Part shown: in pieces, positions 2,093-28,157 of the stretch | Position numbering within the stretch: the stretch's first letter is position 1 | Layout of the letters: each line of letters opens with the position of its first letter | Assembly: GCA_965208755.1 (NCBI GenBank) | Contig: OZ242353.1 | Coordinates: forward strand, 3,866,341 to 3,930,340 | Length of the DNA stretch: 64,000 nt | From: Candidatus Multivorans sp. | Lineage (GTDB): Bacteria; Acidobacteriota; Thermoanaerobaculia; Multivoradales; Multivoraceae | Reading direction: 5' to 3' | Translations under genes and position numbers: made by a program | Notes under the pieces: generated by a model | What the model saw: the letters and a program-made list of their open reading frames with translations, nothing else | Told to the model about the DNA's origin: nothing | Database searches by the model: none

Positions 2093-3079
2093 CTACAACG
2101 CGAGGCTACGGTAGCGCAGGCAGCCCCGGAGCCGTCCCAGCCGCCAGCCGGCGAGCCAGATCCACCGGCCGCGCTTCGACCTGGACAGGAGTTGCGGACT
2201 GCGCAGTAACAGCGAGCCGAGTCGGAGCAGCCCTGGAAGAGCGGGCAACCGCGGCATGCCGCGCGACCGGTACCGCGTATAGATGTAGACGTTGTACTGA
2301 CCGTACCGGACCGCCTGGCGGAAGGCTCCCCGAAGCGTCGCCGGGAACCGCACATGGACGACCGCATCGGGCGCGAAGACGAGGCTGTAGTCGCCAAGTT
2401 GCAGGCGCCAGCACAGATCGGTGTCCTCCAGCGCAACGTACTCCTCGTCTAAACCGCCGAGCTCATCGAAGACGTGGCGCCGGATCCCGAAGCCGCAGCC
2501 GCCCGCGTGATCGAGGAAGGGCGGGTTCGTGTAGCTGCACAGGCCGTGCTGCTGCGCGGCGTTGCCGTGCAACCGTCGCGCCTGCTCGTCGTTCAAACGC
2601 TCGATCTCGTGGCGGCTCGCCGCCGCCTCGTGGCTCTCCAGCTCGCGTACCAGGCCGTCGATCCAGCCCTCGGCGACTACGTCGTCGGCGTCGCAGAAGA
2701 GAAGGACGTCGCCGGTGGCCGCCGCCGCGGCGACGTTCCTGGCGTGCGCCGGCCCCTGGCGGTCGGCGGCGGGCAGAACGCGCAGGCCGGGCAGCCGGTC
2801 GCGCCAGGACGCGGCCAGGTCCGCGGAGCCGTCGGTCGACCCGTTGTCCGCGACCAGCACCTCGAGGTCGCCCTGCCACGTCTGCCGACTGAGTGCTTCG
2901 AGTTGCGCGCCGAGAGTGCCGGCGGCGTTCAGGCAGGGGATGATGACGCTGACGCGCTCGATCGTGAACGGCCGAGGCCCTGCCTCGTCCTCGGTCACTC
3001 GAGGTAGCCCATCGCCTCGAGCGCCTTGCGCGCGGCCTCGGTGTGTGGCGTGACGTTCTGCGGCGAATCGCGGATCCAC
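2093..3079 (-). CDS. Glycosyltransferase family 2. The true start may be a GTG near 3001, which would avoid the overlap with the sulfatase gene.
   Basis: VSVIIPCLNAAGTLGAQLEALSRQT...LVADNGSTDGS...FCDADD motifs (GT-A fold with DxD). Confidence 0.8.
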   Translation of the reverse strand: MDPRFAAERHATHRGRAQGARGDGLPRVTEDEAGPRPFTIERVSVIIPCLNAAGTLGAQLEALSRQTWQGDLEVLVADNGSTDGSADLAASWRDRLPGLRVLPAADRQGPAHARNVAAAAATGDVLLFCDADDVVAEGWIDGLVRELESHEAAASRHEIERLNDEQARRLHGNAAQQHGLCSYTNPPFLDHAGGCGFGIRRHVFDELGGLDEEYVALEDTDLCWRLQLGDYSLVFAPDAVVHVRFPATLRGAFRQAVRYGQYNVYIYTRYRSRGMPRLPALPGLLRLGSLLLRSPQLLSRSKRGRWIWLAGWRLGRLRGCLRYRSLAL

Positions 3080-4443
3080 CTGCTCAGCCGTCGGCCGAGC
3101 CGGTCCCTGACCTCCGGAAACTCGGAGGCCACGTCTCTGAGTTGCAGCGGATCGGACGGCAGGTGGTAGAGCTCGATCGTCGGCTTCTCACGGTCCCGGT
3201 TCGGCGGACGCAGGACGAGTTGCCACTCGCCGTCCTGAATGCTCCGCAGGTGACGCTGGTAGGCCCCGGCATCGGCGAAAGCGATTGGATCCGTAACGGC
3301 GCCGGTTTCGGCTTCGTCGGCCTGCGGCTGCCCCCGCAGCAGAGGCGTCCAGCTGCGGCCCTCGAAGCCCTCGGGCATCGGTTCTCCCAGCAGCTCGACC
3401 AGGGTGGGGAAGAGGCCGATCAACTCGACCGGCTGCTCGACGCGTGCGCCCGTGTCGACCCAGGGTTCGCCGACGACGACCAGCGGCACGTGGACGCTGC
3501 TGTTGTAGGGCACCGGACCATGTTCGAAAGGCACTCCGTGCTCGTTCAGCTCCTCGCCGTGGTCGGCGGTCAGCACGAAGAGGCTCCCGTCGTCCATTCC
3601 GAGTTCCCCGATCTGGTCCAGGATGGCGCCGATCGCGCGATCCGTGACCCAGACGTTCGCGTCGTACTGGGCAACGTAGTAGCGGAGTTCCCGCTGGTCG
3701 CCGAGCGCACGCCCCTCGGCGCCCGTCAAGTCGACGATTTCGTCGCCGACATAGTGCTCGTCGTCCAGAAACGGATTCCCGGTTCCGGGCTGGAGCAGGT
3801 AAGGCACGTGCGGGTCGGTGTAATGCAGCCAGACGAACAGCCGCTCCTCGGAGGCCAGCGAGGCGAGCAGCGGCGCCGCCAGTTCGTTCACGCGGTCGGC
3901 CCACACGTGGCGCCGGAACGCCATCGGCCGCTGCTCGACCGGGAGTTCGTCGACGGCATCGAGGGTCGCCTGGTCGACCCAGGTCTGCTCGTAGCGGTCG
4001 AAGCCGCGGCCCCAACCGAGTTCCCGGCTCAGCACGGGGTTGGAGATCACGGCCGCCGTCGTGAAGCCGCGTTCCTGGAACCAGCCCGGCAAAGCGACAT
4101 AGGACTCTGGAATCGTCTGCGCGGCGTCATGTATCAGCCCGGTCGTGTGCGGGTAGAGGCTGGTGAACATCGAAGCGAAGGACGGTCCCGTCTTCGGCCA
4201 CTGGACGATCGCCCGCTCGAAGACGACACCGCGCTCGACCCACTCGTCGAGCCGCGGACTCGTGTCCCGGGGATAGCCATGCCAGCCCAGGTGATCAGCG
4301 CGCAGCGTGTCGACCGTGATCAGGAAGACGCGCCGCGGCGCTTCGGCTGCGGACTCGAGCGCCGGCTCAGTGCCAGTGCCGCAGGCCAGGGCCAGCGCTG
4401 CAAGTGGCAGGAGGGCCAGCGCTTGCAGGCGGCAACATCGCAT
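2995..4443 (-). CDS. Sulfatase-like hydrolase/transferase of the alkaline-phosphatase superfamily, predicted lipoprotein. The ORF track extends it to 4677, but the probable start is the Met at 4443.
   Basis: VFLITVDTLRADHLGWHGY N-terminal sulfatase motif. Signal peptide with lipobox LALACGTG starts at MRCCRLQALALLPLAALA. A canonical formylglycine C-x-P-x-R motif is not obvious, so true sulfatase activity is uncertain. Confidence 0.7.
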   Translation of the reverse strand: MRCCRLQALALLPLAALALACGTGTEPALESAAEAPRRVFLITVDTLRADHLGWHGYPRDTSPRLDEWVERGVVFERAIVQWPKTGPSFASMFTSLYPHTTGLIHDAAQTIPESYVALPGWFQERGFTTAAVISNPVLSRELGWGRGFDRYEQTWVDQATLDAVDELPVEQRPMAFRRHVWADRVNELAAPLLASLASEERLFVWLHYTDPHVPYLLQPGTGNPFLDDEHYVGDEIVDLTGAEGRALGDQRELRYYVAQYDANVWVTDRAIGAILDQIGELGMDDGSLFVLTADHGEELNEHGVPFEHGPVPYNSSVHVPLVVVGEPWVDTGARVEQPVELIGLFPTLVELLGEPMPEGFEGRSWTPLLRGQPQADEAETGAVTDPIAFADAGAYQRHLRSIQDGEWQLVLRPPNRDREKPTIELYHLPSDPLQLRDVASEFPEVRDRLGRRLSRWIRDSPQNVTPHTEAARKALEAMGYLE

Positions 4444-4497
4444 GGCTTCCTGCAGGAGACTAGCACTGGCCCGGACGCTAGAGTCCTCCGCGCGACC

Positions 4498-6972
4498 ATG
4501 ACTCCAACCGTCGTGCCAGGCCCTGTAGCGGAACCGGAGTTGCCGCGCCGCGCGAGCGTGATCGTGATCGGCGGTGGCGTGATCGGTTGCTCGGTCGCCT
4601 ACCACCTCGCACGCTCGGGGTGCTCCGATGTGCTGCTGCTCGAGCGCCGGCAGATCACTTCCGGCACCACCTGGCATGCCGCCGGCCTGCTCGGTCAGTT
4701 GCGGCAGTCGGTCACGATGACGAACCTCGCTCGCTACACGAGCGAGCTCTACGCCCGCCTCGAGCAGGAGACGGGACAGTCGACTGGCTATCGCCGCTGC
4801 GGCTCCTTCTCGGTCACCGCCGACCCCGAGCGGTTCGAGGAACTCAGGCGCGCGGCTTCACTGGCGAAGGTGCTCGGGCTGCCGGTCAATGTGGTGACGG
4901 CGAAGACGATCGGGGAGCGGGTGCCGCTGCTTGAGACGTCCGACCTGCTCGGCGGACTGCACATCCCCGGCGACGGCTACGCGAGTCCGACGGACGTCAC
5001 CCTGGCGCTGGCCGCGGGCGCCCGCTCCGCCGGCGCCCGGATCGTCGAGCAGGTGCCGGTGATCTCCGTTCGCACCGCCGGGGGACGCGTCATGGGCGTC
5101 GCGACGGAGCAGGGTGACGTCGATGCGGACTGCGTCGTCCTCTGCGCCGGCATGTGGACCCGGGAGCTGGCCGCATCGATCGGCGTCAACGTCCCGCTGC
5201 ACGCCTGCGAGCACTACTACGTGCGGTTCGACGATGTCGAGGGACTCGATGCGAACCTGCCCGTCGTGCGGGACTACGACGCCATCTCGTACTTCAGGTG
5301 CGACGCGGACAAGCTGATCGTCGGCGTCTTCGAGCCGAACGCGCGGCCCTGGGGCATGGACGGCATTCCCGAGGACTTCTGCTTCGACGAGATCGCCGCC
5401 AACCGCGAGCATTTCGAGCCGTTGCTCCGCGGCGCCAGGGAGCGGATGCCGGCACTCCAGTCGGCCGAGGTCCTGCAGCTCTTCTGCGGCCCGGAGAGCT
5501 TCACGCCGGACGTCCGCTACCACGTCGGCCCGGCCCCCGAGTGCGAGAACTGCTTCGTCGCGGCCGGCCTGAACTCGATCGGAATCCAGTCCGCGGGCGG
5601 GATCGGCAAGGTCGTTGCCGAGTGGATTCTCGAAGGGCATCCGCCGGCCGACCTCTGGGAAGCGGACGTGCGCCGCAACATGCCCTTCCAGGGCAACCGC
5701 AGGTACCTGCGCGAGCGGGTCTCCGAGAGTCTGGGCCTGCTCTACGCCATGCACTACCCGTATCGCCAGTTCGAGACGGCGAGGGGCGTGCGCCGGTCAC
5801 CGCTCTACGACCGGCTGGAGGCAGCCGGCGCCTGCCACGGGGAACTCGCCGGCTGGGAGCGCCCGAACTGGTTCGCGCCGGCCGGCGTGCCGGCCCGCTA
5901 CGAGTACAGCTACGGGCGCCAGAACTGGTTCGAGTACTCGGCCGCCGAACATCGGGCCGTGCGCGAAAACGTGGGACTGTTCGACCAGTCGTCGTTCGCG
6001 AAGTTCCGCCTGGAGGGCCGGGATGCGGCCAGGGTGCTCAACCGGGTCTGCGCCAACGACGTCGACGTGCCGCCCGGCCGCATCGTCTACACCCAATGGC
6101 TCAACGAGCGCGGCGGCATCGAGGCGGATCTCACGGTGACGCGCCTGGCGGAAGACAGTTTCCTCGTCGTCACCGCCGTCACCTCCGAGGTGCGGGACTT
6201 TCACTGGCTCAAGGGCCACACTCCGGACGACGCGCACTGCGTGTTGACGAACGTGACCTCGGCGATGGGCGTGATCTCCCTGATGGGCCCGGCTTCCCGC
6301 GCGCTGCTGCAGTCCCTCACGCCGGCGAACCTGGCCAACGAGGCGTTCCCGTTCGCGACCAGCCGCGAGATCGAACTGGGCTACGGCCTGGTTCGGGCAT
6401 CGCGCATCACCTACGTCGGCGAACTCGGCTGGGAGCTCTACGTTCCCACGGAGTTCGTGGCCGGCGTGTACGACGAGATCGTGGCTGCCGGCGAGGCCTT
6501 CGACCTCGTGCACGCCGGCTACCACGCCCTGGACTCGCTGCGCATCGAGAAGGCCTATCGCCACTGGGGCCACGACATCACCGATCAGGACTCGCCGCTC
6601 GAAGCGGGCCTCGGGTTCGCCGTCAGGTTCGGCAAGGCGGGCGGCTTCATCGGGCGCGAGGCGCTGCTCAGGGAGAAGGAGAGCGGCATCGCGAAGCGCC
6701 TGATCCAGTTCAGGCTCCGGGATCCGCGGCCGCTGCTCTACCACTACGAACCGATCTGGCTCGGGGACAAAATCGCGGGCTACGTCACTTCTGGGAACTA
6801 TGGCCACAGCCTCGGAGCGGCCGTCGGTCTCGGCTACGTCCCCATGTCGCTGTTGCCGGACTTCCCCAAACTGCCCGGTGGCTTCGAGATCGAGGTCGCG
6901 GGCGTTCGCGTCCCGGCCGAGGCTTCCCTCAGACCCATGTACGACCCTGGCGGCAAGCGCGTTCGCAACTGA
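4498..6972 (+). CDS. FAD-dependent oxidoreductase fused to a GcvT-like aminomethyltransferase domain (dimethylglycine/sarcosine dehydrogenase family)
   Basis: The start MTPTVVPG...VIVIGGGVIGCSVAYHL is a Rossmann FAD motif, followed by a C-terminal folate-binding GcvT-like domain. About 824 aa. The 1309-aa track ORF 3043-6972 is a run-on of this frame. Confidence 0.75.
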   Translation: MTPTVVPGPVAEPELPRRASVIVIGGGVIGCSVAYHLARSGCSDVLLLERRQITSGTTWHAAGLLGQLRQSVTMTNLARYTSELYARLEQETGQSTGYRRCGSFSVTADPERFEELRRAASLAKVLGLPVNVVTAKTIGERVPLLETSDLLGGLHIPGDGYASPTDVTLALAAGARSAGARIVEQVPVISVRTAGGRVMGVATEQGDVDADCVVLCAGMWTRELAASIGVNVPLHACEHYYVRFDDVEGLDANLPVVRDYDAISYFRCDADKLIVGVFEPNARPWGMDGIPEDFCFDEIAANREHFEPLLRGARERMPALQSAEVLQLFCGPESFTPDVRYHVGPAPECENCFVAAGLNSIGIQSAGGIGKVVAEWILEGHPPADLWEADVRRNMPFQGNRRYLRERVSESLGLLYAMHYPYRQFETARGVRRSPLYDRLEAAGACHGELAGWERPNWFAPAGVPARYEYSYGRQNWFEYSAAEHRAVRENVGLFDQSSFAKFRLEGRDAARVLNRVCANDVDVPPGRIVYTQWLNERGGIEADLTVTRLAEDSFLVVTAVTSEVRDFHWLKGHTPDDAHCVLTNVTSAMGVISLMGPASRALLQSLTPANLANEAFPFATSREIELGYGLVRASRITYVGELGWELYVPTEFVAGVYDEIVAAGEAFDLVHAGYHALDSLRIEKAYRHWGHDITDQDSPLEAGLGFAVRFGKAGGFIGREALLREKESGIAKRLIQFRLRDPRPLLYHYEPIWLGDKIAGYVTSGNYGHSLGAAVGLGYVPMSLLPDFPKLPGGFEIEVAGVRVPAEASLRPMYDPGGKRVRN

Positions 6973-7024: not shown

Positions 7025-8236
7025 ATGCACTCCCGACCTTCCCAGGCCGTGATCCTGGCCGGCGGCCGGGGCACCCGCCTGGCGCCCCTGACGGACACGC
7101 TGCCCAAGGCGCTGATTCCGTTCCACGGCAAGCCGTTCCTCGGCCACGTGATCGACATGCTGCGCGAACAGGGCTTCGAGCGCGTCCTGCTGCTGCTCGG
7201 CTATCGCGCGGAGGCGATGATCGACCACTTCGGCGACGGCTCGGCCTACGGTGTCGAGATCAGCCACCGGGTGACGGCGCCGGATGACCTGACGGCGCAC
7301 CGGGTCAAGGACGCGGCCGGCGAACTGGACGACCTGTTTCTGCTCCTCTACTGCGACAACTACTGGCCGATGCAGTTCGACCGGATGTGGCGCGCCTACG
7401 TCGACTCCGGGGCGGCGGCCCAGATCACCGTCTACGCGAACCGCGACGGCTACACCCGCGACAGCGTGATCGTGGGCGACGATGGCTTCGTCACCGTCTT
7501 CGACCGCGGCCGGACGACGCCGGGGCTCCGCGGAGTCGAGATCAGCTACGCGATCCTCAAGAAGTCGGCGGTGCTGCCGCTCCTGCCGGATCACCAGGAG
7601 CTGTTCGAGGAGGCGGTCTATCCGGCACTGACTGCCCGGGGCGAACTCCACGCCTATTGGAGCGAGCACCGCTACTACAGCGTCGGCGGCCACGAACGGT
7701 TGCCGCTGACCGAGGCGTTCTTCGCCCGCACGCCGACGATCATCCTGGACCGCGACGGCGTCCTCAACGTGCGCCCGCCGCGGGCGGAGTACGTCTGCAC
7801 GCCTGACGAGCTGCTCTGGCTGCCGGGCGCCCGCGAGGCGCTCGCCGCCTTCAACCGGGCCGGTTGGCGGGTGCTCGTCGTGTCGAACCAGCCCGGAGTC
7901 GCCCGTTGCCGCATGACGCTGGACGACCTGGCGGCGGTGCATCGACGCCTGTGCGGCGAGGCCGAGGCCGCGGGCGGGCGGATCGACCGCATCTACTTCT
8001 GTCCTCACGGCTGGGACGAGGGTTGCGACTGCCGCAAGCCGGCGCCGGGAATGCTCTTCCAGGCTCAGCGCGATCACCACCTCGACCTGACCAGGACGAC
8101 GTTCCTGGGCGACGATGAGCGCGACGGCCAGGCAGCGGACGCGGCGGGCTGCCCGTTCGGCCTGGTCACCGAGAGCGAACCGCTGCTCGCGCACGCCGAG
8201 CGGCTGCTGGCCTTGCGAACGGCGGCGGCGGGATGA
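7025..8236 (+). CDS. Bifunctional sugar-1-phosphate nucleotidyltransferase / HAD-IIIA phosphatase. Resembles a fusion of D-glycero-D-manno-heptose-1-phosphate guanylyltransferase HddC with D,D-heptose bisphosphate phosphatase GmhB.
   Basis: N-terminus [16 protein letters not shown]...KALIPF is the nucleotidyltransferase G-x-G-T-R motif. C-terminus [10 protein letters not shown]...VVSNQ...[14 protein letters not shown] is a GmhB/histidinol-phosphatase HAD motif with a Zn-binding Cys cluster. Confidence 0.8.
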
Positions 8237-9309
8237 GTACGGCCTTCGTTCGCCGTCCGGTCCTGGTGACGGGGCATCGCGGCTATCTCGGCTCGGTCAT
8301 GGCGCCGTTCCTGATGGAGCGAGGCTACGACGTCGTCGGGCTCGATACCGGCTACTTCGACGACTGCACGATCACGGCGGACCCGGTGCCGATCCCATCG
8401 ATCCGCAGGGACATCCGGGATCTCGAGCCGGCCGACCTGCGCGCGTTCTACGCGGTGATCCACCTCGCCGCCCTCTCGAACGACCCGATCGGCAACCTGG
8501 ATGAGAACTGGACCGAGGAGATCAACCACGGTTCGTCCGTGCGGCTTGCCGAGCTGGCGCGCGAGGCCGAGGTGCGTCGCTTCCTGTTCTCGTCTTCGTG
8601 CATCATGTACGGCCAGTCCAGCACGGAAACCGTGGACGAAACCTCGCCGCTCGACCCACGGACCCTGTACGCGCGTTCCAAGGTCCGGAGCGAGGAGGCG
8701 ATCCGGGAGCTGGCGCAGGACGGTTTCTCGCCGACCTTCCTGCGCAACGGTACCGTGTACGGCCTGTCGCCGCGGATGCGCTTCGACACGGTACTGAACG
8801 ATCTGACCGGAGCCGCCTTCGCCAACCGGCGAGTCGTCGTCTACGGCGACGGCAAGCCGTGGCGGCCGGTCGTCCACGTGGAGGATGTGGCGGCGGCGTT
8901 CGGCCGCGTGCTCGAAGCGCCGCTCTCGCTGGTTCACAACGAGGCCTTCAACACCGGCGCCGACCACCTGAACCACCGCGTGATCGAACTCGCGGAGATC
9001 GCGGCCGACCTCGTGCCCGGCTGCGAGATCGAGGTGCGAGGCGAGCCCGGCGCCGACCAGCGCACCTACCGCGCTTCGTTCGAGAAGTTCGCCAGTGCCT
9101 TCCCGGACTTCGAGTTCCGCGACGCTGCCGGCGGCGCGAAGCAGCTGATCGAGGGCTATCGCAGCGTCGGCCTCGATGCGGCGCTCTACGGCGACGCACG
9201 CTTCGTTCGGCTGCGCTGGCTCAACCGGCTGCTCGACTCGGGACGGCTGGACGGCTCTCTGCGCTGGAAGGCCAGCGGCGAAGAGACAGAACGGGAGGAG
9301 AAGGGATGA
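8233..9309 (+). CDS. NAD-dependent epimerase/dehydratase (extended SDR family)
   Basis: [12 protein letters not shown] glycine-rich NAD motif and YARSK catalytic YxxxK. ATGA overlap with the upstream gene. Confidence 0.8.
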
Positions 9310-9755
9310 TCCACGGCGTCAAGGTGGTTCCGCTTCGTCAGATCGTCGACGAGCGGGGCAAGATCATGCACATGCTGAAGGCCACCGATGAACACTTCCT
9401 CGGCTTCGGCGAGATCTACTTCTCGACCGCGTGGCCGGGGACGATCAAGGCCTGGCACATCCACCGGTCGATGACCGTCAACAACGCGGTGATCAGCGGC
9501 CGGGCCAAGCTCGTGATGTACGACCTGCGTGAGGACTCGCCGACCCACGGCGAGCTCCAGGAGGTCTTCTTCGGTGAGGACAACTACGTCCTGGTCCAGA
9601 TCCCGCCGGGGATCGCGAACGGCTACAAGGCGTACGGCGACACGCAGGTGATCATGGCGAACGCCGCCACCGAGCCGCACGACCCCGACGAGATGGACCG
9701 GCTCGATCCGCTCACCGACCGGATCCCCTACGACTGGGCGCTCCAGCACGGCTGA
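9306..9755 (+). CDS. RmlC-like cupin sugar epimerase (dTDP-4-dehydrorhamnose 3,5-epimerase-like / GDP-heptose C3,C5-epimerase-like)
   Basis: About 150 aa with a cupin-like pattern (KAWHIHRS..., [16 protein letters not shown]). ATGA overlap with the SDR gene. Family-level call only. Confidence 0.55.
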
Positions 9756-9777
9756 GGCGACGGGGATCCTCGCTGAC

Positions 9778-10785
9778 GTGGACGCATCGCGCCTGATCGT
9801 GACCCGTACGCCGCTCAGGGTGTCCCTGGTGGGCGGAGGCACCGACCTGCCGGCGTTCTACCGGCGCGAGGGCGGCGCCGTGCTCTCGACCACCATCGAC
9901 CGCTACGTCTACGTCACGGTGAAGCGGCACAGCGAGTTGTTCTTCGAGCCGGTCCGCGTCAACTACTCCCGGAGCGAGCAGGTCGAGCGGATCGACGAAC
10001 TGGACAACAACATTGCCCGCGAGTGCCTGCGCTTCGTGGGCATCGACCCGCCGGTCTACATCTCGACGGTCGGCGACGTGCCGGCGTCCACCGGCCTCGG
10101 CGGTTCGAGCGCCTTCGCCGTCGGCCTGCTGAACGCGCTGCACTCGTACAAGGGCGAGCGCGCGTCGGCGGGTCAGTTGGCGGAGGAGGCCTGCCACATC
10201 GAGATCGACGTCCTGGGTGCGCGGATCGGCAAGCAGGATCAGTACGCCGCGGCCTACGGCGGACTCAACCTGCTGTCGTTCAAGCGGGACGGCGGGGTGA
10301 CGGTCGAGCACTTGCGGATCCCCGGCGACCGTCTGCGCGAGCTGTTTCGTTCGGTGCTCATGTTCTGGACCGGACACCAGCGGGACGCGAGCGCGGTGCT
10401 CTCGGAGCAGGACGACCGCACCGAGCTGAACCTGGAATCGCTGCGCCGGATGCGGGACCAGGCGAGCGACCTGCACCGGGATCTCGGCGCCGGCGACATC
10501 GATGTCGAGGGCATTGGCCGGCTCCTCGACGAGGGCTGGCGGATGAAGCGGGAACTCGCCGGATCCATCACGACGCCGTTGATCGACGGCTGGTACGACG
10601 CGGCGATCGCGGCCGGCGCCCTGGGAGGCAAGCTCTGCGGCGCCGGCGGCGGCGGGTTCCTGCTGTTCGTCGTGCCGCCCGATCGGCAGGCCGCGGTCCG
10701 CGCGGCGCTGACCGACCTGTACGAGTTGCCCGTAGGCCACGAGTCCCACGGCTCGCAGCTCGTCGCTCCGTTCCACCATGGCTAG
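9778..10785 (+). CDS. GHMP kinase, D-glycero-D-manno-heptose 7-phosphate kinase (HddA)-like
   Basis: RTPLRVSLVGGGTDLPAFY N-terminus and PASTGLGGSSAFAVGL GHMP ATP-binding motif. Confidence 0.8.
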   Translation: MDASRLIVTRTPLRVSLVGGGTDLPAFYRREGGAVLSTTIDRYVYVTVKRHSELFFEPVRVNYSRSEQVERIDELDNNIARECLRFVGIDPPVYISTVGDVPASTGLGGSSAFAVGLLNALHSYKGERASAGQLAEEACHIEIDVLGARIGKQDQYAAAYGGLNLLSFKRDGGVTVEHLRIPGDRLRELFRSVLMFWTGHQRDASAVLSEQDDRTELNLESLRRMRDQASDLHRDLGAGDIDVEGIGRLLDEGWRMKRELAGSITTPLIDGWYDAAIAAGALGGKLCGAGGGGFLLFVVPPDRQAAVRAALTDLYELPVGHESHGSQLVAPFHHG

Positions 10786-12001
10786 CTGCCTCCTCTGCGC
10801 TGCATGCGAGGTGGAGACCTTCCTCGACCTCGGCAGCACAGCGCTCGCCAACAAGTTCCCCAGCGCTGAAGGCCTGAGCCGGCCCGAACCGCGCTTCCCG
10901 CTCCGCGTCGGCTTCTGCCACGCCTGCGGACACGTCCAGCTTGTGGAGCGCGTGCCTCCCGCCGCGATGTTCACGGACTACCTCTACGTGTCGTCCGCCT
11001 CCGACACGCTGCGGGCCCACTTCGACGACCTGGCGGCCACGCTGACTGCCAGGCATGACCTCGCCGACGGCGGCCTGGTCATCGACATCGGCTGCAACGA
11101 CGCGTCGCTCCTCTGCTGCTTCCGCGACCGCGGCGCCCGGATCCTGGGCGTCGATCCGGCCGAGAACCTGGTCGAGTACAGCCGCGACACCGGGATCGAG
11201 CGCTACCGGGGGTTTTTCGGCGCCGACACCTCTGGCGAGATCGCGGCCCGCTGGGGCCGGGCGGCGCTGGTCACCGCGACGAACACGTTCCCGCATGTAC
11301 CCGACCTCTCAGGCTTCGTCGCCGGCCTCGACGCGGTCCTCGCGCCCGGCGGCGCCTTCGTTCTCGAGGCGCACTACCTGGTCGACCTGCTCGACCAGCT
11401 CGCGTTCGACACGGTGTACCACGAGCACGTCTCCTACTGGGCGCTGGGTCCGATGAAGCGGCTCTTCGAGGACCACGGCATGGAAGTCGTGCGGGCGGAG
11501 CGGCTGCCGATCCACCATGGCCAGCTCCGTGCCACCGTGATGCGCCGCGGCGAGGGCGAGGTGGACAGCAGCGTCGCCGAGGTCCTGACCGCCGAGACTC
11601 AGCTCGGCATCGACCGGTTCGACACCTGGCGCGCGTTCGCCGGGCGGGTCGGGCGGTTGAAGGCGGAGGTCATGGACTGCCTCAACGGCCTCAAGGCGGA
11701 CGGCGGGCGCCTCGCCGGCTATGGCGCTCCCGCCAAGGGCAGCACGCTGCTCGAGTTCTTCGGCGTGGGCCCGGACCTGCTCGACTTCATTGCCGACCGG
11801 AGCCCGCTCAAGCAGGGCCGCTACACCCCGGGCTCCCATATTCCGATCGTCGCGCCGGAGCGGCTCCTGGAGGAGCCTTCGCCCGACCACGTGCTGCTCC
11901 TGGCCTGGAACTTCGAAGAGGAAATCCTCGCCCAGCAGGCCGAGTTCCGCCGCCGCGGCGGCAGGTTCATCCTACCGGTGCCGGAAGTGCGGATCGTCTG
12001 A
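10778..12001 (+). CDS. SAM-dependent sugar C-methyltransferase (TylC3/NovU-like; N-terminal putative Zn-binding domain, class I MTase, C-methyltransferase C-terminal domain)
   Basis: N-terminal Cys cluster CLLCAAC...CHACGHV, a methyltransferase core DIGCNDASLL, about 407 aa. Start overlaps the kinase stop. Confidence 0.7.
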   Translation: MASCLLCAACEVETFLDLGSTALANKFPSAEGLSRPEPRFPLRVGFCHACGHVQLVERVPPAAMFTDYLYVSSASDTLRAHFDDLAATLTARHDLADGGLVIDIGCNDASLLCCFRDRGARILGVDPAENLVEYSRDTGIERYRGFFGADTSGEIAARWGRAALVTATNTFPHVPDLSGFVAGLDAVLAPGGAFVLEAHYLVDLLDQLAFDTVYHEHVSYWALGPMKRLFEDHGMEVVRAERLPIHHGQLRATVMRRGEGEVDSSVAEVLTAETQLGIDRFDTWRAFAGRVGRLKAEVMDCLNGLKADGGRLAGYGAPAKGSTLLEFFGVGPDLLDFIADRSPLKQGRYTPGSHIPIVAPERLLEEPSPDHVLLLAWNFEEEILAQQAEFRRRGGRFILPVPEVRIV

Positions 12002-12011
12002 GCCAGCGGCC

Positions 12012-12791
12012 GTGTTCCGTTCGCGATCGGGATCGGGAGCGGGAGCGGGTGTCGTGGCCCTCCTGCTCGTCTGCTTCGCATGCGCGGGGTCCGAACCGCC
12101 GCCCCGGGAGCCGCCCTATCGCGGCACCGCCTTCATCGACCCCGACTTGATCGTTGCTTCCGACCCCTCGGCGCTGCGGAGTCTCGACTACACGGGGCTT
12201 GACACTCGCAGGATGTTCGACCGGCGCGCGGACGCCTTCGTGCTGACCGATGCCTATCTGTTCAACGCGACCTTCGAGCGTGAGACGGTCGTGGAGGTCC
12301 AGGTCAACGCGGAGTTCGGCGACCCGGTTCTGGCCGAGCGGCATGCAGCCTTCTACGCCCAGGCCATCGGCCAACTGCCGGCGGGCCTGCGGACGCTGGT
12401 CGAGACTGTGTGGATTCACCGGGGCGACCAGCCCTTCGGCGGCGGCAACGACAACATCCTGATCCACACGGGAAAGGCGGCGGAGTACCTGCGCGACGGC
12501 GTGCTGGAGGAGATCCTGATGCACGAGGCCGCGCACACCTCCCTGGATCCGGTGTTTGCGGCTGCCGAAGATTGGTTGACCGCGCAGGCCGCGGACGGCG
12601 GCTTCATCTCCGACTACGCTCGCGAGCATCCGCGGCGGGAAGACGTCGCCGAGAGCTTCGGGCCCTTCTTCGCGGTCCGGCACCGCCCGGAGCGGATCTC
12701 CCGCGACATGGCGGAGACGATCCAGGCGACGATGCCGAATCGCATCGAGTTCTTCGACCGCCTGGAACTCGACATGAACCCAGTCAGGTAA
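12012..12791 (+). CDS. Secreted or lipoprotein HExxH zincin-like protein, hypothetical
   Basis: GTG start at 12012 gives a signal peptide VVALLLVCFACAG. HEAAH motif (ILMHEAAHT). The track ORF 11721-12791 is a run-on through the upstream gene end. Confidence 0.45.
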   Translation: MFRSRSGSGAGAGVVALLLVCFACAGSEPPPREPPYRGTAFIDPDLIVASDPSALRSLDYTGLDTRRMFDRRADAFVLTDAYLFNATFERETVVEVQVNAEFGDPVLAERHAAFYAQAIGQLPAGLRTLVETVWIHRGDQPFGGGNDNILIHTGKAAEYLRDGVLEEILMHEAAHTSLDPVFAAAEDWLTAQAADGGFISDYAREHPRREDVAESFGPFFAVRHRPERISRDMAETIQATMPNRIEFFDRLELDMNPVR

Positions 12792-14294: not shown

Positions 14295-15254
14295 GTGGCT
14301 GGACAGGGAGCACCGACGGTTGCCGCCCTCGTCCTGAACTACAACGGGCGCGACATCACGTTGCAGGCGTTGGCGAGCCTCGAAGCGATGACCTACACCG
14401 CCTGCGAGTTGATCCACATCGACAACGGTTCCGGCGACGGTTCGTTCGAGGCGGTCGCCGCCGAGCACCCGGGTGTGACCCAGATCCGGGTCGAGGAGAA
14501 CCAGGGTGTGGTCTACGGCATGAACAAGGGGATCGCACTTGCCGTCGACCGCGGCGTCGACTACCTCCTGCTGCTCAACAACGACATCGAGGTCGAGCCG
14601 GACTTCCTCGACGAACTCGTCGCGGTAGCTGAGGCTGATCCCGCTATCGGCTGCGTGGGTCCGAAGATCCTCTACCACGGCGAGCGGGACAGGTTGTGGT
14701 CTGCCGGCGGCCGGATTCGCTTTCGCGAGTCGATGACCCGGGAGCGCGGCGAAGGCCAGGTCGATCGCGGCCAGTACGACCGCGACGAGGAAGTGCCCTA
14801 CGTCAACGGCTGCGCGATGCTGGTGCGCCGCTCGGTCGTCGAGGAGATCGGCCTCTGGGATCCGCTGTTCCATCTGGCCCTCGACGACGCGGACTGGTGC
14901 ATGCGGATGAAGGCACGCGGCTACCGCTGCTACTACGCGCACCGGGCCGTGCTCTACCACATGGTTGCGCGGACGGTAGGCGGGTATCGGGCTTCGCGGA
15001 CGTTCTTCAACGGCCGCAGCGCCGCGCTGTTCGTGCGCCGCTACGGCGGGCCACTCCAGTGGTGCTCATTCCTCCTGTTTCTCTCGGCGGGCCTCTTCCT
15101 GGCCTTCTTTCGCGAACTCGTCCGCGGCAACCAGGGCGCCGTGATCGCCAAGCTCCGCGGCGTGGTCGAGGGCCTCCGGGCGCCGATGGCGCCGCCGCCG
15201 GGGGTCGACCCTCGGGAGGACCAGGCGCAGGCTGCAGGCTCCGGCTCGTTATGA
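14295..15254 (+). CDS. Glycosyltransferase family 2
   Basis: ALVLNYNGRDITLQAL...IDNGSGDGS...LLLNNDIEVEPDFL, GT2 GT-A fold. GTG start. Confidence 0.8.
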   Translation: MAGQGAPTVAALVLNYNGRDITLQALASLEAMTYTACELIHIDNGSGDGSFEAVAAEHPGVTQIRVEENQGVVYGMNKGIALAVDRGVDYLLLLNNDIEVEPDFLDELVAVAEADPAIGCVGPKILYHGERDRLWSAGGRIRFRESMTRERGEGQVDRGQYDRDEEVPYVNGCAMLVRRSVVEEIGLWDPLFHLALDDADWCMRMKARGYRCYYAHRAVLYHMVARTVGGYRASRTFFNGRSAALFVRRYGGPLQWCSFLLFLSAGLFLAFFRELVRGNQGAVIAKLRGVVEGLRAPMAPPPGVDPREDQAQAAGSGSL

Positions 15255-15269
15255 CAGTATTGCAGCCTT

Positions 15270-15557
15270 ATGGTGGTGCGTGCGACCTACTCACTCGACG
15301 AAGCTACCGTTCGGCGCCTTCGGCGAACGGCGGAGCGGCTCGGAAAACCCCAGAGCCAGATCGTTCGCGAGGCGATCGCCGACTATGCGGCCCGTTGCGA
15401 CAGGCTGAGCGAGGTCGAGCGGCTCAGGATGCTGGAGGTGCTCGGCCGACTGCGCAGCGCGCAGGTGACGGGCTCGGCGGAGGCTGTCGAGGCCGAGTTG
15501 CGTGAGATCCGCGAATCCCGTCGCGTCGGCTGGGACCGCGAGTCCGATCGGCGATGA
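15270..15557 (+). CDS. vapB: Ribbon-helix-helix (CopG/VapB-like) antitoxin
   Basis: 95 aa with an RHH-like N-terminus (SLDEATVRRLRRTAERLGKPQSQIVREAIADY). ATGA overlap with the downstream PIN gene. Confidence 0.65.
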   Translation: MVVRATYSLDEATVRRLRRTAERLGKPQSQIVREAIADYAARCDRLSEVERLRMLEVLGRLRSAQVTGSAEAVEAELREIRESRRVGWDRESDRR

Positions 15558-15928
15558 TCCACCTTGACACCTCGGCCCTGGTGGACGCTCTGGTGTCTCC
15601 TCACCGTTCGTTCGACCGGCTGATGTCCTTCGTTGAGGACGGCCACCGTTTGTGCATCTCCACACTGGTTCTGTACGAGTGGCTGCGCGGTCCGCGAACG
15701 GTGGCGGAGCGACTGGCGCAGGAGCAGATCCTGCCGGCCGCTGCCGCCGTGCCGTTCGACGCCGAGGCCGCGGCCCGGGCTGCCGAGATCTACGAAGTCG
15801 TCTCGCGGCCCCGCCGCCGCCAGGCGGACATCGCGATCGCGGCGTGCGCCCTGGTTCAGGGCGCCGCGCTCTGGACGCTCAACGAGCGCGATTTCGCGGA
15901 TGTACCCGAGCTGGAGATCGTCCAGTAA
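15554..15928 (+). CDS. vapC: PIN-domain ribonuclease toxin VapC
   Basis: MIHLDTSALVDAL ... acidic PIN residues ... TLNERDFADVPELEIV, classic VapC. Confidence 0.8.
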   Translation: MIHLDTSALVDALVSPHRSFDRLMSFVEDGHRLCISTLVLYEWLRGPRTVAERLAQEQILPAAAAVPFDAEAAARAAEIYEVVSRPRRRQADIAIAACALVQGAALWTLNERDFADVPELEIVQ

Positions 15929-15933
15929 CCCCG

Positions 15934-16484
15934 TCTTGAAGAACCTGCGCGAGGACACGCGCCGGCTGCGCGCGATCAAGACCAAGCCGTTCCCCTTCTA
16001 CGTGCTCGAGTCGCTGCTGTTCGAGAACGGCTACCAGGCCGTCGTCCTCTACCGGATCGCCCACTGGTTCAAGAGCCGCCGCGTTCCGGTGCTGGGGCCG
16101 TTCGTCGCCCGGCTCTCGCTGTTTCTCAACAGCGTCGACATCGCGCCGGGGGCCCGCATCGGACCGGGTCTGTTCATCAGCCACGGCATCGGCCTGGTGA
16201 TCGGCAACGGCGTGCGCATCGGGCGAAACGGAACGTTGCTCCACCAGGTCACGATCGGCGCCCCGACCGGCCGGCGGCTGGACCAGATGCCGACCCTTGG
16301 CGACAACGTCTTCGTCGGCGCCGGCAGCCGGCTGATCGGAAGCATCGAGATCGGCGACGACGTCTTCATCGGCGTGAACTGCGTCGTGACCGAGGACATC
16401 CCGGCCGGCACGAAGGTCACGACGACCGCTGGTCTGCTGCTCAAAGCCGGCGGCGGCACCCCGACCGACGGGGAGAGCGAGTAG
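15934..16484 (+). CDS. Hexapeptide-repeat acyltransferase, serine O-acetyltransferase (CysE/WcaB)-like
   Basis: Left-handed beta-helix hexapeptide repeats (IGPGLFISHGIGLVIGNGVRIGRNGTLLHQVTIGA...). Probable TTG start at 15934 giving MKNLREDTRRL, a typical short-SAT N-terminus. An ATG at 15900 is the alternative. Confidence 0.65.
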
Positions 16485-17985: not shown

Positions 17986-19458
17986 ATGGTGGCGGTCGAG
18001 CATCACGTAACCGACCAGAAGGCCCGAGGGGCCTACTACACACCACCTGAGACCGCCGCCGCGCTGGTCCGGTGGGCCGTTCGAGACCCTGACGAGCACA
18101 TGCTCGACCCGTCCTGCGGCGACGGCCGGTTCCTCGCGCTACATCCCCGCAGCACCGGTGTCGATTGCGACGCCACGGCAGTCTCCAGTGCAACCGAGGC
18201 GGCACCTCGCGGAACCGTAGAGTGTGCGGACTTCTTCGATTGGGCCGCGTCCACGACGCAGCGCTTCGATTGCGCGGCCGGCAACCCCCCCTTCATCCGC
18301 TACCAGCGGTTCACCGGCGAGACGCGACGTCAGGCCCTGAAACTCTGCGCTACGTTGGGCGCCAAGTTGTCGGGGCTCTCGTCGTCCTGGGCACCGTACC
18401 TGATCGTGACCGCTTCTCTGCTTCGGCCCGGCGGCCGGATGGCTTTCGTCGTGCCAGCTGAGATCGGCCATGCTCCCTACGCGGCCCCGGTCCTCGACTG
18501 GTTCGCGGGTCACTTTGACGATGTGCAGTTGGTTCCGGTCCGGAAGAAGCTGTTCGCGGACCTGTCGGAAGATGTCTGGCTTCTCTACGCCGATGGCTTC
18601 GGCGGGAGGACGGGCCACTTCGACCTCGCGCTCCACGAGCGTTTCGTGTTCCGGTCCGAACCGCCGATAGCCGACACGCGCGTGTCGGTCCGAGAGTGGC
18701 GTCGCTGGGGCTCTCGGCTCCGGCCGATGCTCTTGCCGAGCAGGATTCGCGACGCCTACGAGAGGCTCAGAGACTCCGACCTGACCACCCCGCTCGGGCG
18801 AGTGGCCGGCGTAGGCATCGGCTACGTTTCCGGCGCCAACGACTTCTTCCACCTCCGCCCATCGGAGGCGGAGGAGTTGGGTATCCCGACGGAGCTGTTT
18901 CGCCCAACGGTCCGAAGCGGCCGGGAACTCCAGGCCGGGGCGATCACCGATGAGACGGTTGCAGGTTGGCGAACCAACGACAGGCCGAATTTCCTGCTGG
19001 CGCTCGGCCCCGAGACACCGCTGCCCGACACGGTCAGCCGTTACCTGGATTCACCTCGTGGCATCGAAGTCAGGAAGCGCTACAAATGTCGCATCCGAAC
19101 TCCGTGGTACGCGGTGCCCCATGTGTCCGTGCCCGACCTCTTTCTCTCGTACATGAGTGGAGAAGGGCCCGCCCTGGTCGAGAACCAGGCTCGTTGCACC
19201 TGTACGAACGCGGTCCATGGCGTCCGTCTGAACGACAGAGGCGTCACTGCGTCTCACCTCCGCCGGCGGTGGGAGACGACTCTGACTCGTCTCAGTTGCG
19301 AGATAGAGGGCCATCCGTTGGGCGGCGGCGTGTTGAAACTGGAGCCGCGCGAGGCGTTGAATGTTCTTGTGTGTCTGGAGGGCGACCTGGATGCCGGCGA
19401 TGAGCGCGGCCTGAAGGAGGGAGTCGAGACTCTGCGCCGGTGGCGGCACCGTGGCTAG
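17986..19458 (+). CDS. Gamma-class N6-adenine DNA methyltransferase (type II, M.TaqI/Eco57I-like) with a C-terminal target-recognition domain
   Basis: ARGAYYTPPE (motif X/I), DPSCGDGRFL, and NPPF (motif IV). Confidence 0.8.
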   Translation: MVAVEHHVTDQKARGAYYTPPETAAALVRWAVRDPDEHMLDPSCGDGRFLALHPRSTGVDCDATAVSSATEAAPRGTVECADFFDWAASTTQRFDCAAGNPPFIRYQRFTGETRRQALKLCATLGAKLSGLSSSWAPYLIVTASLLRPGGRMAFVVPAEIGHAPYAAPVLDWFAGHFDDVQLVPVRKKLFADLSEDVWLLYADGFGGRTGHFDLALHERFVFRSEPPIADTRVSVREWRRWGSRLRPMLLPSRIRDAYERLRDSDLTTPLGRVAGVGIGYVSGANDFFHLRPSEAEELGIPTELFRPTVRSGRELQAGAITDETVAGWRTNDRPNFLLALGPETPLPDTVSRYLDSPRGIEVRKRYKCRIRTPWYAVPHVSVPDLFLSYMSGEGPALVENQARCTCTNAVHGVRLNDRGVTASHLRRRWETTLTRLSCEIEGHPLGGGVLKLEPREALNVLVCLEGDLDAGDERGLKEGVETLRRWRHRG

Positions 19459-20338
19459 ACAGACGAACCGTTGTCGCTGGATCGGCCTCTCCGAGGCTCT
19501 CGACGCGTTTGTCTCTGTGCCCGGAAAGTCCCAGAGTCAGGCCCACATCCGGCCCCTACACTGGTACACCGCTTGCCGGCTCGTGGTTGAAGGCGGCTTT
19601 CACCCGGACGACATCGTTCCACGACCGCCTTTCTCGGTGCGCCGCTCGCGTGGCGGCCATGTTCTGGTTCACGACCCGGAAAGCGCGGCGGGAGGTGAGT
19701 TGACGGTGCTGGGAGGCTTGAAGACAAAGGACGTGGATGTCGTCGTCAGCAAGCCAGGCATCGGCCCCTGTGTTGCCGTGTCGATCAAGGGCACGCTGAA
19801 TGCCTTTCGTAACCTGACAAACCGCATGGAGGAAGCGGTCGGCGACTGTACGAACCTGCACATCTCCTACCCGAACCTGGTCTACGGGTTCCTCCACGTC
19901 ATTCGCGCCAACCGGGAAGGCCCCTTGGCGCGCGATGCGGCGCACTTCCTCAAAGCTGACGGTGCGGGCAACGTCGCCGCCAACGACATCGCCATCCGGG
20001 ATGACGGCGGAGTGGCCGAATCGATCGTTCGCTACCACGATGTTCTTCTTGGTCTCACCGGCCGCGACGGCGTGCGGAACGACATCTCGCGTTACGAGGC
20101 GCTGGCGCTGGCTCTGGTCGATCCGGAGAATCGAGCCGTGCTCCCGGACTGGCCGTCGGCCGAAAGCCCGCTTTGCATCGAGAAGTTCATGGACGCGATC
20201 TACCGCGCGTACGACCAGCGCTACGTTTACGCCGCGCCCAAGCTGGCGAAACGAACCGCCAGGTTCGCCTGGCGGGCCGACTCCCCGGCGTTCGCCGAAC
20301 CGTTGGCGGCAGCGTTCGCGCGACGGCTGGGGCACTGA
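19451..20338 (+). CDS. Hypothetical protein, possibly the cognate restriction endonuclease of the adjacent methyltransferase
   Basis: 295-aa ORF whose start overlaps the MTase stop by 8 nt. Candidate PD-(D/E)xK-like stretch HDPES...ELTVLGGLKTKDVDVVVSK. No confident family match from sequence alone. Confidence 0.4.
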   Translation: MARQTNRCRWIGLSEALDAFVSVPGKSQSQAHIRPLHWYTACRLVVEGGFHPDDIVPRPPFSVRRSRGGHVLVHDPESAAGGELTVLGGLKTKDVDVVVSKPGIGPCVAVSIKGTLNAFRNLTNRMEEAVGDCTNLHISYPNLVYGFLHVIRANREGPLARDAAHFLKADGAGNVAANDIAIRDDGGVAESIVRYHDVLLGLTGRDGVRNDISRYEALALALVDPENRAVLPDWPSAESPLCIEKFMDAIYRAYDQRYVYAAPKLAKRTARFAWRADSPAFAEPLAAAFARRLGH

Positions 20339-20357
20339 GATCACCTGAGCCGAAGAG

Positions 20358-20936
20358 ATGCCGCGCCGCGTCACCTACCAACTCAGGATCGATCTGAAGG
20401 GAACGAAGCCCCCCATCTGGCGGCGGGTTCTCGTGCCGCCTTCGTTCCCGCTTGATCGCCTGCACGAGGTCGTCCAGGTGGCCATGGGTTGGCTCGACGT
20501 ACACCTCCACATGTTCGTCAAGGGTCGACAGACCTACGCCCTCCCGAACCCCTGGGATGACGATTGGGCGCTTCCCGGAATGCCCGCGACACTCGATGAG
20601 AGAAAGTTCCGGGTCGGCCAACTTCTCAAGCGCGAGAAGGACTGGATCAGGTACGAGTACGACTTCGGCGACGGCTGGGAGCACCGAATCACGCTCCAGA
20701 AGATCCTCCCGTACGACCCGGCTCTCCTTCTCCCGGCATGCACTGGCGGGAAGCGGCACTGTCCGCCTGAAGACTGCGGCGGCGTTTGGGGCTACTACCA
20801 CAACCTGGAAGTCCTCAATGACCCGAAGCACGAGGAGTACGAACACATCCGGGAGTGGATGGGCGCCGGGTTCGACGCGGAGGAGTTCAGCGTCGACGAA
20901 GTCAACGAAGTGCTCCGTTCGATGGACCCGGCGTGA
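20358..20936 (+). CDS. Plasmid pRiA4b ORF-3-like family protein (PF07929-like)
   Basis: IWRRVLVPPSFPLDRLHEVVQVAMGW...HLHMF and YEYDFGDGWEH motifs typical of this family. Confidence 0.7.
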   Translation: MPRRVTYQLRIDLKGTKPPIWRRVLVPPSFPLDRLHEVVQVAMGWLDVHLHMFVKGRQTYALPNPWDDDWALPGMPATLDERKFRVGQLLKREKDWIRYEYDFGDGWEHRITLQKILPYDPALLLPACTGGKRHCPPEDCGGVWGYYHNLEVLNDPKHEEYEHIREWMGAGFDAEEFSVDEVNEVLRSMDPA

Positions 20937-23594: not shown

Positions 23595-23665
23595 GATCTG
23601 ACATGATCGCCGCTCTTCACGCAGACTTCTCTTCGCCGCTCCGCGACTAGCGAAGCGGTTGGCGC

Positions 23666-25297: not shown

Positions 25298-25318
25298 GGG
25301 CGGCGCGGTGAGGGCGGC

Positions 25319-27322
<2,004 letters not shown>

Positions 27323-27353
27323 GGCGCGGAGCGCAGACGCGAGGAGGATCTGG

Positions 27354-28157
27354 ATGTCGAACCAGCCTGGTACGGAGTGCACGCTCTACGAGGTCAAGAG
27401 CGGCGCCGCCTGGATCACGCTGAACCGCCCGGAACGGCGGAACGCCCTGTCGCCGACGCTGGTCACGGAGGTCCATGACCACCTGGCCGCGGCGCAGGCC
27501 GACGACAGCGTCCGCTCGATCGTCATCACCGGCAAAGGCCCGGGCTTCTGCTCTGGCGCCGATCTCAAGCGGCAACCGGGCGAGAGCGAGCCGGAGAGGA
27601 TCGTGCCCTACCCGGAAGTCCTGACCGCGATCTGGGAGGGCGAGAAGCCGGTGATCGCCGCGGTGAACGGCCATGCCTTCGCCGGCGGCCTGGGCATGGT
27701 CGCGGCCTCGGACCTCGTGATCACCGCCGAAGAGGCGATGTTCAGCTTCAGCGAGGTGCGGATCGGCGTCATCCCGGCGATCATCGCGGTCGTCTGCCTG
27801 CGCAAGCTGGGGCCGCACCACGGCATGCGGCTGTTCCTGACCGGCGACCGGTTCAGCGGCCGCCAGGCGGTGGAGTACGGCCTCGCCCACAAGGCGGTGC
27901 CGCGCGACGAGCTGATGGCGACGGTCCAGGAGGAGATCGACGCGATCAACCTGGGCGGCCCGAACGCGGTCGTCGAGTGCAAGAAGCTGGTCCGCGCGGT
28001 CCCCGACATCTCGCTCGCCGAGGGCTTCGAACTGACCCAGGGCTGGAGCCGGCGCATGTTCCAGAGCGAGGAGGCGGCCGAGGGCATGGCGGCCTTCCGC
28101 GAGAAGCGCAAGCCGAGCTGGGCGGCGGCTGTCGGGTCCGGCGGAGAGTCCTCGTGA
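27354..28157 (+). CDS. Enoyl-CoA hydratase/isomerase (crotonase; methylglutaconyl-CoA hydratase-like)
   Basis: Crotonase-fold motifs (GKGPGFCSGADL, ALGGGL-like). Lies immediately after the carboxylase subunits. Confidence 0.75.
   Translation: MSNQPGTECTLYEVKSGAAWITLNRPERRNALSPTLVTEVHDHLAAAQADDSVRSIVITGKGPGFCSGADLKRQPGESEPERIVPYPEVLTAIWEGEKPVIAAVNGHAFAGGLGMVAASDLVITAEEAMFSFSEVRIGVIPAIIAVVCLRKLGPHHGMRLFLTGDRFSGRQAVEYGLAHKAVPRDELMATVQEEIDAINLGGPNAVVECKKLVRAVPDISLAEGFELTQGWSRRMFQSEEAAEGMAAFREKRKPSWAAAVGSGGESS

Follow-up and report, generated by a model that had tools for sequence, protein, structure and literature searches.

We identify a five-gene operon (positions 7025-12001) in a 64,000-nucleotide stretch of DNA, hereafter the window, from a sponge-associated acidobacterium of the Holophagales/Thermoanaerobaculia 'Candidatus Multivorans' group (contig OZ242353.1). 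We propose that it makes a modified, nucleotide-activated heptose for a surface glycan, which flanking family 2 glycosyltransferases (GT2) and a flippase would assemble and export. Judged by gene content and order, the operon is the C-methyltransferase flavor of a conserved cassette that comprises gmhA, a transferase-phosphatase fusion gene, a short-chain dehydrogenase/reductase (SDR) gene, a cupin gene, a kinase gene and a variable tailoring slot. Four enzymes carry the assignment to heptose, each being best matched by heptose enzymes: the kinase, the phosphatase, the SDR (by Cj1427) and the GmhA-like protein of homologous cassettes. We regard the scheme as a whole as reasonably probable. Its core, a nucleoside diphosphate (NDP)-heptose undergoing 4-keto-dependent tailoring, deserves higher confidence, and the use of one SDR for both redox steps and the position of the methyl group deserve lower confidence.

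A translationally coupled operon under purifying selection

The five genes are contiguous on the forward (+) strand, and their positions and domains, each above its Pfam gathering score, agree with the initial annotation of this DNA. They encode a 403-residue fusion of a nucleotidyltransferase to a HAD-IIIA, GmhB-like phosphatase (7025-8236, +); a 358-residue extended SDR of Cj1427 type, a predicted NDP-heptose C4 oxidoreductase (8233-9309, +); a small, 149-residue RmlC/CapF-type cupin, a predicted C3 and/or C5 epimerase of a 4-keto sugar (9306-9755, +); a 335-residue HddA/WcbL-like GHMP kinase, predicted to act at C1, the anomeric carbon, of a heptose 7-phosphate (9778-10785, +); and a 407-residue C-methyltransferase of the TylC3/TcaB9/KijD1 family that depends on S-adenosylmethionine (10778-12001, +). 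The fusion/SDR and SDR/cupin junctions are each an ATGA overlap, the cupin and kinase genes are separated by 22 nucleotides, and the kinase and C-methyltransferase genes overlap by 8 nucleotides. With these junctions, the five form one translationally coupled operon.

All five proteins recur, identical and in the same order, in a contig from the ENA (L001), and 33 loci in related genomes keep this order, with proteins that are identical or nearly so. Compared with its counterpart in the metagenome-assembled genome (MAG) VXSP01000040.1, the fusion protein shows 99% identity, and it is 88-98% identical to those of about 30 more MAGs of the 'Ca. Multivorans' group. Within this clade the ratio of nonsynonymous to synonymous substitution rates (dN/dS) is 0.03-0.20 for all five genes, and stop codons are absent. 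By these sequence measures the five are real, functional genes under purifying selection. Decay of the operon after loss of gmhA was considered as well and is ruled out by the same dN/dS values. One MAG, COS3_bin_14, carries two copies of the operon on different contigs (loci L007 and L008).

A widespread cassette with a variable tailoring slot

At 53-70% identity, 47 distant loci preserve the order fusion-SDR-cupin-kinase; they come from about eleven phyla: Acidobacteriota, Gemmatimonadota, Alphaproteobacteria, Actinomycetota, Chloroflexota, Rokubacteria, Nitrospirota, Verrucomicrobiota, Omnitrophota, Binatia and Armatimonadota. The SDR gene is present in 40 of 43 of these loci, the small cupin gene in 27 of 41 and the kinase gene in 37 of 39. 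Loci without the small cupin, such as those of rhizobia, have a canonical RmlC-like gene in its stead, so that a cupin occurs in every cassette. Of 44 evaluable distant loci, 36 contain a GmhA-like gene, and in 31 it is the immediate upstream neighbor of the fusion gene; about a quarter of the distant loci have no adjacent gmhA. Cassettes with an adjacent gmhA are syntenic with those of the sponge clade, and their proteins show 60-85% identity to the sponge clade proteins. The surroundings of the cassettes are polysaccharide loci with GT2, Wzx, Wzm/Wzt and Bac_transf genes.

The fusion itself had been thought uncommon, which proved wrong. Homologues account for 3742 of 8000 scored candidates at E <= 1e-10, and the best 120 are all 379-431 residues long, share 65-90% identity and each contain both domains; the fusion occurs in 80 genomes at species level, spread over about eleven phyla. 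In a plasmid collection only 32%-identical fusions were found, on Azospirillum plasmids among insertion sequence (IS) elements.

The gene behind the kinase varies. A C-methyltransferase gene follows it in 33 of 33 clade loci and in 12 of 37 distant loci, among them that of the cultured Magnetospirillum sp. SS-4 (L071). In 15 loci the slot holds a canonical RmlC-like epimerase together with a DXR-like (DRL_cat) oxidoreductase, and in one locus a DAO oxidoreductase and a short SDR. The RmlC/DRL add-on (for example L034 13767-15576 and L047 13484-15394) includes an oxidoreductase of about 445 residues, its DRL_cat domain being seen in L084, the only copy with a Pfam annotation; carriers include Mesorhizobium and Sinorhizobium (L047-L052), Microvirga and Oceanibium, a cassette of this last genus being that of O. 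sediminis O448 (L040). A DXR-like enzyme acting beside a keto-sugar pathway could yield a different branched or rearranged heptose.

The nearest outgroup, locus L034 from a Thermoanaerobaculia MAG (70% identity), has both gmhA and the RmlC/DRL add-on, along with homologues of the GT2 and acetyltransferase of the window. The comparison points to a loss of the adjacent gmhA in the sponge clade, which has the C-methyltransferase in the place of the add-on. In the literature searched, no paper ties a heptose to a C-methyltransferase or describes the fusion or the cassette. The chemistry recombines known enzyme families, and the cassette appears to be uncharacterized.

The activation enzymes resemble those of heptose pathways

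The kinase contains the Pfam domains GHMP_kinases_N and GHMP_kinases_C, and its top NCBIfam family is HddA (NF049969, 154 bits against a cut-off of 600). Among structures in the PDB it sides with heptose kinases (3k85, 1e-48; WcbL 4usk, 1e-39; Campylobacter jejuni 4n3o, 1e-36), ahead of fucokinase (4e-19) and galactokinase (7e-13).

The phosphatase half of the fusion spans approximately residues 236-390, with Pfam HAD-type domains at residues 190-382, and has both the DxD motif and the Cys/His zinc loop. Its closest structures are those of GmhB (4pnh, 3e-33, and 3l8h). It scores 148 bits against the cut-off of 178 for the GmhB equivalog NF006506 and passes TIGR01656 (124 bits, cut-off 84) and TIGR01662; the fusion reaches 78 bits for the alpha-specific model NF050049 (cut-off 250). 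Two motifs of this half, CpH.W..gC.CRKP and GDD.RD (GDDERD in the window protein), are nearly invariant across 49 sequences. The transferase half, approximately residues 1-230, is a sugar-1-phosphate nucleotidyltransferase (Pfam NTP_transferase, 5e-18, residues 8-139) whose structural relatives are 7whr and HddC 6jq8. It retains the G-rich loop, the Lys and the Asp of YCDNY, and the fusion family has invariant motifs of its own, YCDNYWPM and HRYYS.

The initial annotation had assigned kinase, phosphatase and transferase to a heptose activation route, and the trio does side with heptose enzymes, on indirect evidence: the PDB and NCBIfam relatives described here and, most strongly, the comparison of loci with its synteny with gmhA point in that direction and away from hexose 1-phosphate enzymes.

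An SDR, a cupin and a C-methyltransferase suited to 4-keto sugars

The SDR (Pfam Epimerase, 5e-43) keeps the catalytic Tyr and Lys. Its top match in the PDB is Cj1427 (6vo6; 1e-24 over query residues 8-310), with 90.7 bits against 70.9 for the runner-up, and the two proteins have in common YxxxK and the motif G(L/I)SPRMR(F/L)D..(L/V)ND(L/F)T. We therefore predict, from these similarities, a Cj1427-like NDP-heptose C4 oxidoreductase. The earlier reading of this protein as a Campylobacter-type C4-reductase is not borne out, given that its closest solved relative is a C4-dehydrogenase and that it is the lone SDR of the operon. Scans with Pfam and NCBIfam found no second SDR, second reductase or dehydratase in the operon or its flanks. 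The 4,6-dehydratase signature is also absent from the SDR, which scores 25 bits against a cut-off of 415 for the GMD model (TIGR01472), 40 against 365 for the dTDP-glucose model (TIGR01181) and 18 against 278 for the CDP-glucose model. These family scores rule out the SDR as a 4,6-dehydratase. A 6-deoxyheptose is thus unlikely, and so is the deoxyheptose that had been offered as one possible product.

The SDR might be a plain epimerase, either an HldD-like enzyme inverting C6 to give an L-glycero heptose or one acting at C4; no keto sugar would be released, and the cupin and C-methyltransferase would then have a different mode of action or a different substrate. The GalE-like arrangement of its Ser...YxxxK residues (SSSCIMYG) speaks for this, as do weak matches to GalE (78 bits) and to the heptose 6-epimerase model TIGR02197 (47 bits) and the lack of the small cupin in rhizobial cassettes. 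We nevertheless consider a plain epimerase quite unlikely. GalE equivalog models score far below their cut-offs, the top relative over the full length is Cj1427 with its distinctive shared motif, and at least one cupin, small or canonical RmlC-like, belongs to every cassette. Cupin epimerases and C-methyltransferases need a released keto sugar, moreover, and no other enzyme of the operon could supply one.

The cupin matches dTDP_sugar_isom (PF00908; 3.5e-12, 46.8 bits against a cut-off of 27) and Polysacc_synt_C (PF14667; 1e-8), and reaches 31 bits for TIGR01221 (cut-off 156). Its closest structure, 3ejk (1.8e-29), is of unknown function; further relatives in the PDB are RmlC enzymes, Cap5F (4yrd and 2zkl, about 8e-5) and the C. 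jejuni GDP-4-keto-heptose epimerases 8dcl and 8dak. Identity across phyla is about 80%, and the family keeps a DERG motif and a His that aligns with the catalytic His of RmlC.

The TylC3-like C-methyltransferase was correctly recognized at the outset. Three Pfam domains exceed their cut-offs (Methyltransf_13, PF08421; Methyltransf_23, PF13489; Methyltransf_14, PF08484, 2e-53), and the protein aligns end to end with KijD1 (5t64, 1e-90), a mycarose enzyme (4rv9, 3e-89) and TcaB9 (3ndi, 3e-87). Four Zn cysteines, a Tyr, a His and the Tyr-x-Glu-His of TcaB9 are conserved, which we take to be its zinc ligands and active site. Known enzymes of the TylC3/TcaB9 family methylate the carbon beside a 4-keto group. 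A TcaB9-like methyltransferase therefore fits an SDR that is predicted to make a 4-keto sugar.

The relatives of these last two enzymes raise the question of whether two unrelated pathways have been interleaved by chance, one activating a heptose and the other, formed by SDR, cupin and C-methyltransferase, C-methylating a dTDP-6-deoxyhexose as in mycarose synthesis. All solved relatives of the C-methyltransferase and most of those of the cupin do act on dTDP-6-deoxy-4-keto sugars. Such an arrangement is very improbable, as the SDR and cupin genes sit between those for transferase and kinase, in an order and with a translational coupling that are kept across about eleven phyla. Neither RmlA nor the 4,6-dehydratase RmlB is encoded in the operon or its flanks, and the SDR is closest to a GDP-heptose enzyme.

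Proposed pathway and points that weigh against it

We propose that the GHMP kinase would phosphorylate C1 of a heptose 7-phosphate, that the HAD half of the fusion would remove the 7-phosphate and that the transferase half would make the NDP-heptose. The single Cj1427-like SDR would then oxidize C4, the small cupin would epimerize the free 4-keto sugar, and the TcaB9-like enzyme would C-methylate it beside the keto group, most likely at C3. The keto group would be re-reduced; as the cassette has no conserved second reductase, the same SDR probably does this with retained NADH. The product, predicted from the enzyme families to be an epimerized NDP-3-C-methyl-heptose retaining its 6-hydroxyl, would be used by the GT2 enzymes, the flippase and an acetyltransferase. 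A stronger form of this proposal holds that one SDR both opens the tailoring by C4 oxidation and closes it by C4 reduction, with the small, non-canonical cupin and the TcaB9-like enzyme acting in between, and that the resulting 3-C-methyl-heptose is the first C-branched heptose, exposed at the cell surface of Acidobacteriota symbionts of sponges and of bacteria from at least six other phyla; this we put forward tentatively, as a possibility that is open to considerable doubt.

Several observations weigh against the pathway. No SIS/GmhA gene was detected in the 64-kb window, as the initial annotation had also stated, or in 34 close-relative loci with flanks of +/-10 kb (tblastn and a profile of 120 cassette-type GmhA proteins in both cases). 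The GmhA of other cassettes itself scores below cut-off with its top model (TIGR00441, 95 bits against 209), and matches GmhA structures in the PDB at 4e-22. None of the enzymes reaches its NCBIfam equivalog cut-off for HddA, HddC or GmhB. The profile searches were in this sense divided: the three C-methyltransferase domains passed, and HddA (154/600), HddC (NF049965, 52.5/300) and GmhB (148/178) fell short. All solved relatives of the C-methyltransferase use dTDP-6-deoxy sugars, and a C-methyl heptose is found nowhere in the literature searched. In the cupin, Ala and Met stand where RmlC has its Lys and Tyr. The pattern of epimerization is not predictable for a protein that keeps the RmlC His and lacks these two residues. 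Re-reduction by the same SDR is purely our inference, and in Campylobacter a separate NADPH-dependent reductase performs this step.

The transferase adds a further difficulty. In HddC the motif ExEPLGTGGA contains Glu80, which reads guanine (PMC6981941). Alignment to Yersinia HddC (6jq8) places other residues at this motif in the transferase half. The initial annotation had named a GDP-linked donor, and neither this alignment nor the low HddC score bears that out. By analogy GDP would still be expected as the nucleotide, but the base-reading loop is atypical.

The missing isomerase and the low scores raise the alternative that the clade uses no heptose at all and activates another phosphosugar, a hexose 6-phosphate or other aldose phosphate, to make a C-methyl hexose. 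The absence of gmhA from the window and the 34 clade loci would be explained in this way, every enzyme lies well below its heptose equivalog cut-off, the base and sugar loops of the transferase are atypical, and about a quarter of distant loci likewise have no adjacent gmhA. We judge a non-heptose substrate unlikely. The 60-85% identity and synteny with gmhA-adjacent cassettes make a change of substrate improbable, the kinase clearly sides with heptose kinases, and a GmhA encoded elsewhere in the genome for the lipopolysaccharide (LPS) core would suffice. Cells, besides, normally make hexose 1-phosphates by mutases and not by a kinase/phosphatase pair.

For a heptose pathway, a GmhA encoded elsewhere in the genome, for example for the LPS core, is the simplest explanation, because the operon clearly remains under selection without gmhA. 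A homologue search with the L034 GmhA gave 7852 matches, of which the best 120 are cassette-type GmhA proteins and none of these is attributable to 'Ca. Multivorans'. Cassette GmhA forms a divergent subfamily, its gene lying about 600 bp upstream of the fusion gene in loci L033-L080 (for example L034 9372-9989). At the positions that we take to be the zinc ligands of Burkholderia GmhA (His64, Glu68, Gln175 and His183), cassette GmhA has His, Asp, Glu and Asp. It might use another metal or have another stereochemical outcome.

Comparison with characterized systems

Heptose modification in Campylobacter is the closest precedent. The two systems would have in common activation by kinase, phosphatase and transferase, C4 oxidation without dehydration, which keeps the 6-hydroxyl, and a cupin acting on a 4-keto sugar; Cj1427 is the closest solved relative of the SDR, and the 4-keto-heptose epimerases are detectable relatives of the cupin. 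The operon differs in its fused transferase-phosphatase, in having a single SDR and no Cj1428-type reductase, in its added C-methyltransferase, in its shorter cupin of 149 residues without the RmlC Lys and Tyr, and in the absence of the HddC guanine motif from its transferase. The Campylobacter enzymes share only about 30% sequence identity with those of the operon.

Systems of the GmhA/HddA/GmhB/HddC type use the same three activation chemistries, and WcbL and HddC are among the closest solved relatives of the operon enzymes. Their genes, in contrast, are separate and clustered with gmhA, their 6-deoxy routes use a DmhA/WcbK 4,6-dehydratase that is absent here, and the operon enzymes miss all of the equivalog cut-offs. 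The C-methyltransferases TylC3, MtmC, KijD1 and TcaB9 (mycarose, kijanose and tetronitrose) have the same three-domain architecture, align end to end at 1e-87 to 1e-90 and share the zinc and active-site residues. Their substrates are dTDP-4-keto-2,6-dideoxy or 3-amino sugars of antibiotic pathways, whereas for the operon enzyme, which is encoded in a surface-glycan locus, the predicted substrate is an NDP-4-keto-heptose. In Staphylococcus aureus, CapF (Cap5F) fuses an SDR C4-reductase to a cupin C3-epimerase; the operon cupin matches the family of the CapF C-terminal cupin and is likewise paired with an SDR. The operon SDR and cupin are separate proteins, however, the SDR is Cj1427-like, and the CapF substrate derives from a UDP-hexosamine.

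Nearly all that is known of heptose modification comes from Campylobacter, Yersinia and Burkholderia. Our data point to a related and differently built route that is widespread among environmental bacteria and symbionts, cultured rhizobia and Magnetospirillum among them. If the proposal is true, a C-methyl heptose would be a new class of monosaccharide in bacterial surface glycans, and the cassette would represent a simpler, redox-neutral counterpart of the alpha-ketoglutarate-dependent Cj1427 system. For sponge symbionts, a conserved surface-glycan locus could bear on host recognition. No major concept is changed by these findings, which offer a well-defined target for enzymology.

Neighboring genes

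The GT2 and flippase genes noted beside the operon in the initial annotation are confirmed by Pfam. A Wzx-like polysaccharide flippase with nine hydrophobic segments (619-2082, -; Polysacc_synt_3, 4e-31) lies beside the operon in most clade loci and is the probable user of its product. The adjacent GT2 gene (2093-3079, -; Glycos_transf_2, 4e-29) is conserved in clade loci, and a second one (14295-15254, +; Glycos_transf_2, 3e-19) is found downstream of the operon in nearly all of them and at 70% identity in the outgroup L034. A hexapeptide-repeat acyltransferase (15900-16484, +; Hexapep, 1.6e-12) possibly O-acetylates the glycan; its start codon is uncertain, and a 194-residue form matches the gene called in L001. 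The gene downstream of the flippase gene (2-643, -) is truncated; its product, a membrane protein without a Pfam match, has five hydrophobic segments and could act on the same glycan as a polymerase or a GT-C-type glycosyltransferase.

Immediately upstream of the operon, and ending 52 bp before it, a gene at 4510-6972 (+) encodes an 820-residue protein resembling dimethylglycine and sarcosine dehydrogenases (DAO, FAO_M, GCV_T and GCV_T_C). It occupies the position that gmhA has in other phyla. The gene probably has no part in the sugar pathway, for only 21 of 33 clade loci have it at this site, and the other 12 and all distant loci do not. A sulfatase-family open reading frame (2995-4677, -; 560 residues from its first ATG) overlaps its start by about 170 nucleotides, and the start codon of one or the other is probably misplaced. 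The G+C content of the window is 65-70%, and a spurious 1309-residue open reading frame at 3043-6972 results from this high G+C.

Directly after the C-methyltransferase gene, positions 12054-12791 (+) encode a 245-residue protein that matches no family; its N-terminus (LLLVCFAC) resembles that of a lipoprotein, and it contains HEAAH, an HExxH motif of metalloproteases. The gene is kept in most clade loci and missing from distant cassettes. In L001 an AAA_14/DUF4143 gene is inserted behind it. The upstream flank of L001 also differs from that of the window, with a DNA methylase, a ResIII helicase and PIN and HEPN/nucleotidyltransferase genes of defense type. In the window, a ribbon-helix-helix/PIN toxin-antitoxin pair (15270-15928, +) lies between the GT2 and acetyltransferase genes. 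Further downstream, positions 17986-20936 and 21993-28157 (+) encode an M.Eco57I-like DNA methyltransferase, a PRiA4_ORF3 protein and a leucine/isovalerate-type catabolic set of acyl-CoA ligase, carboxyltransferase, biotin carboxylase and enoyl-CoA hydratase, all unrelated to the sugar operon.

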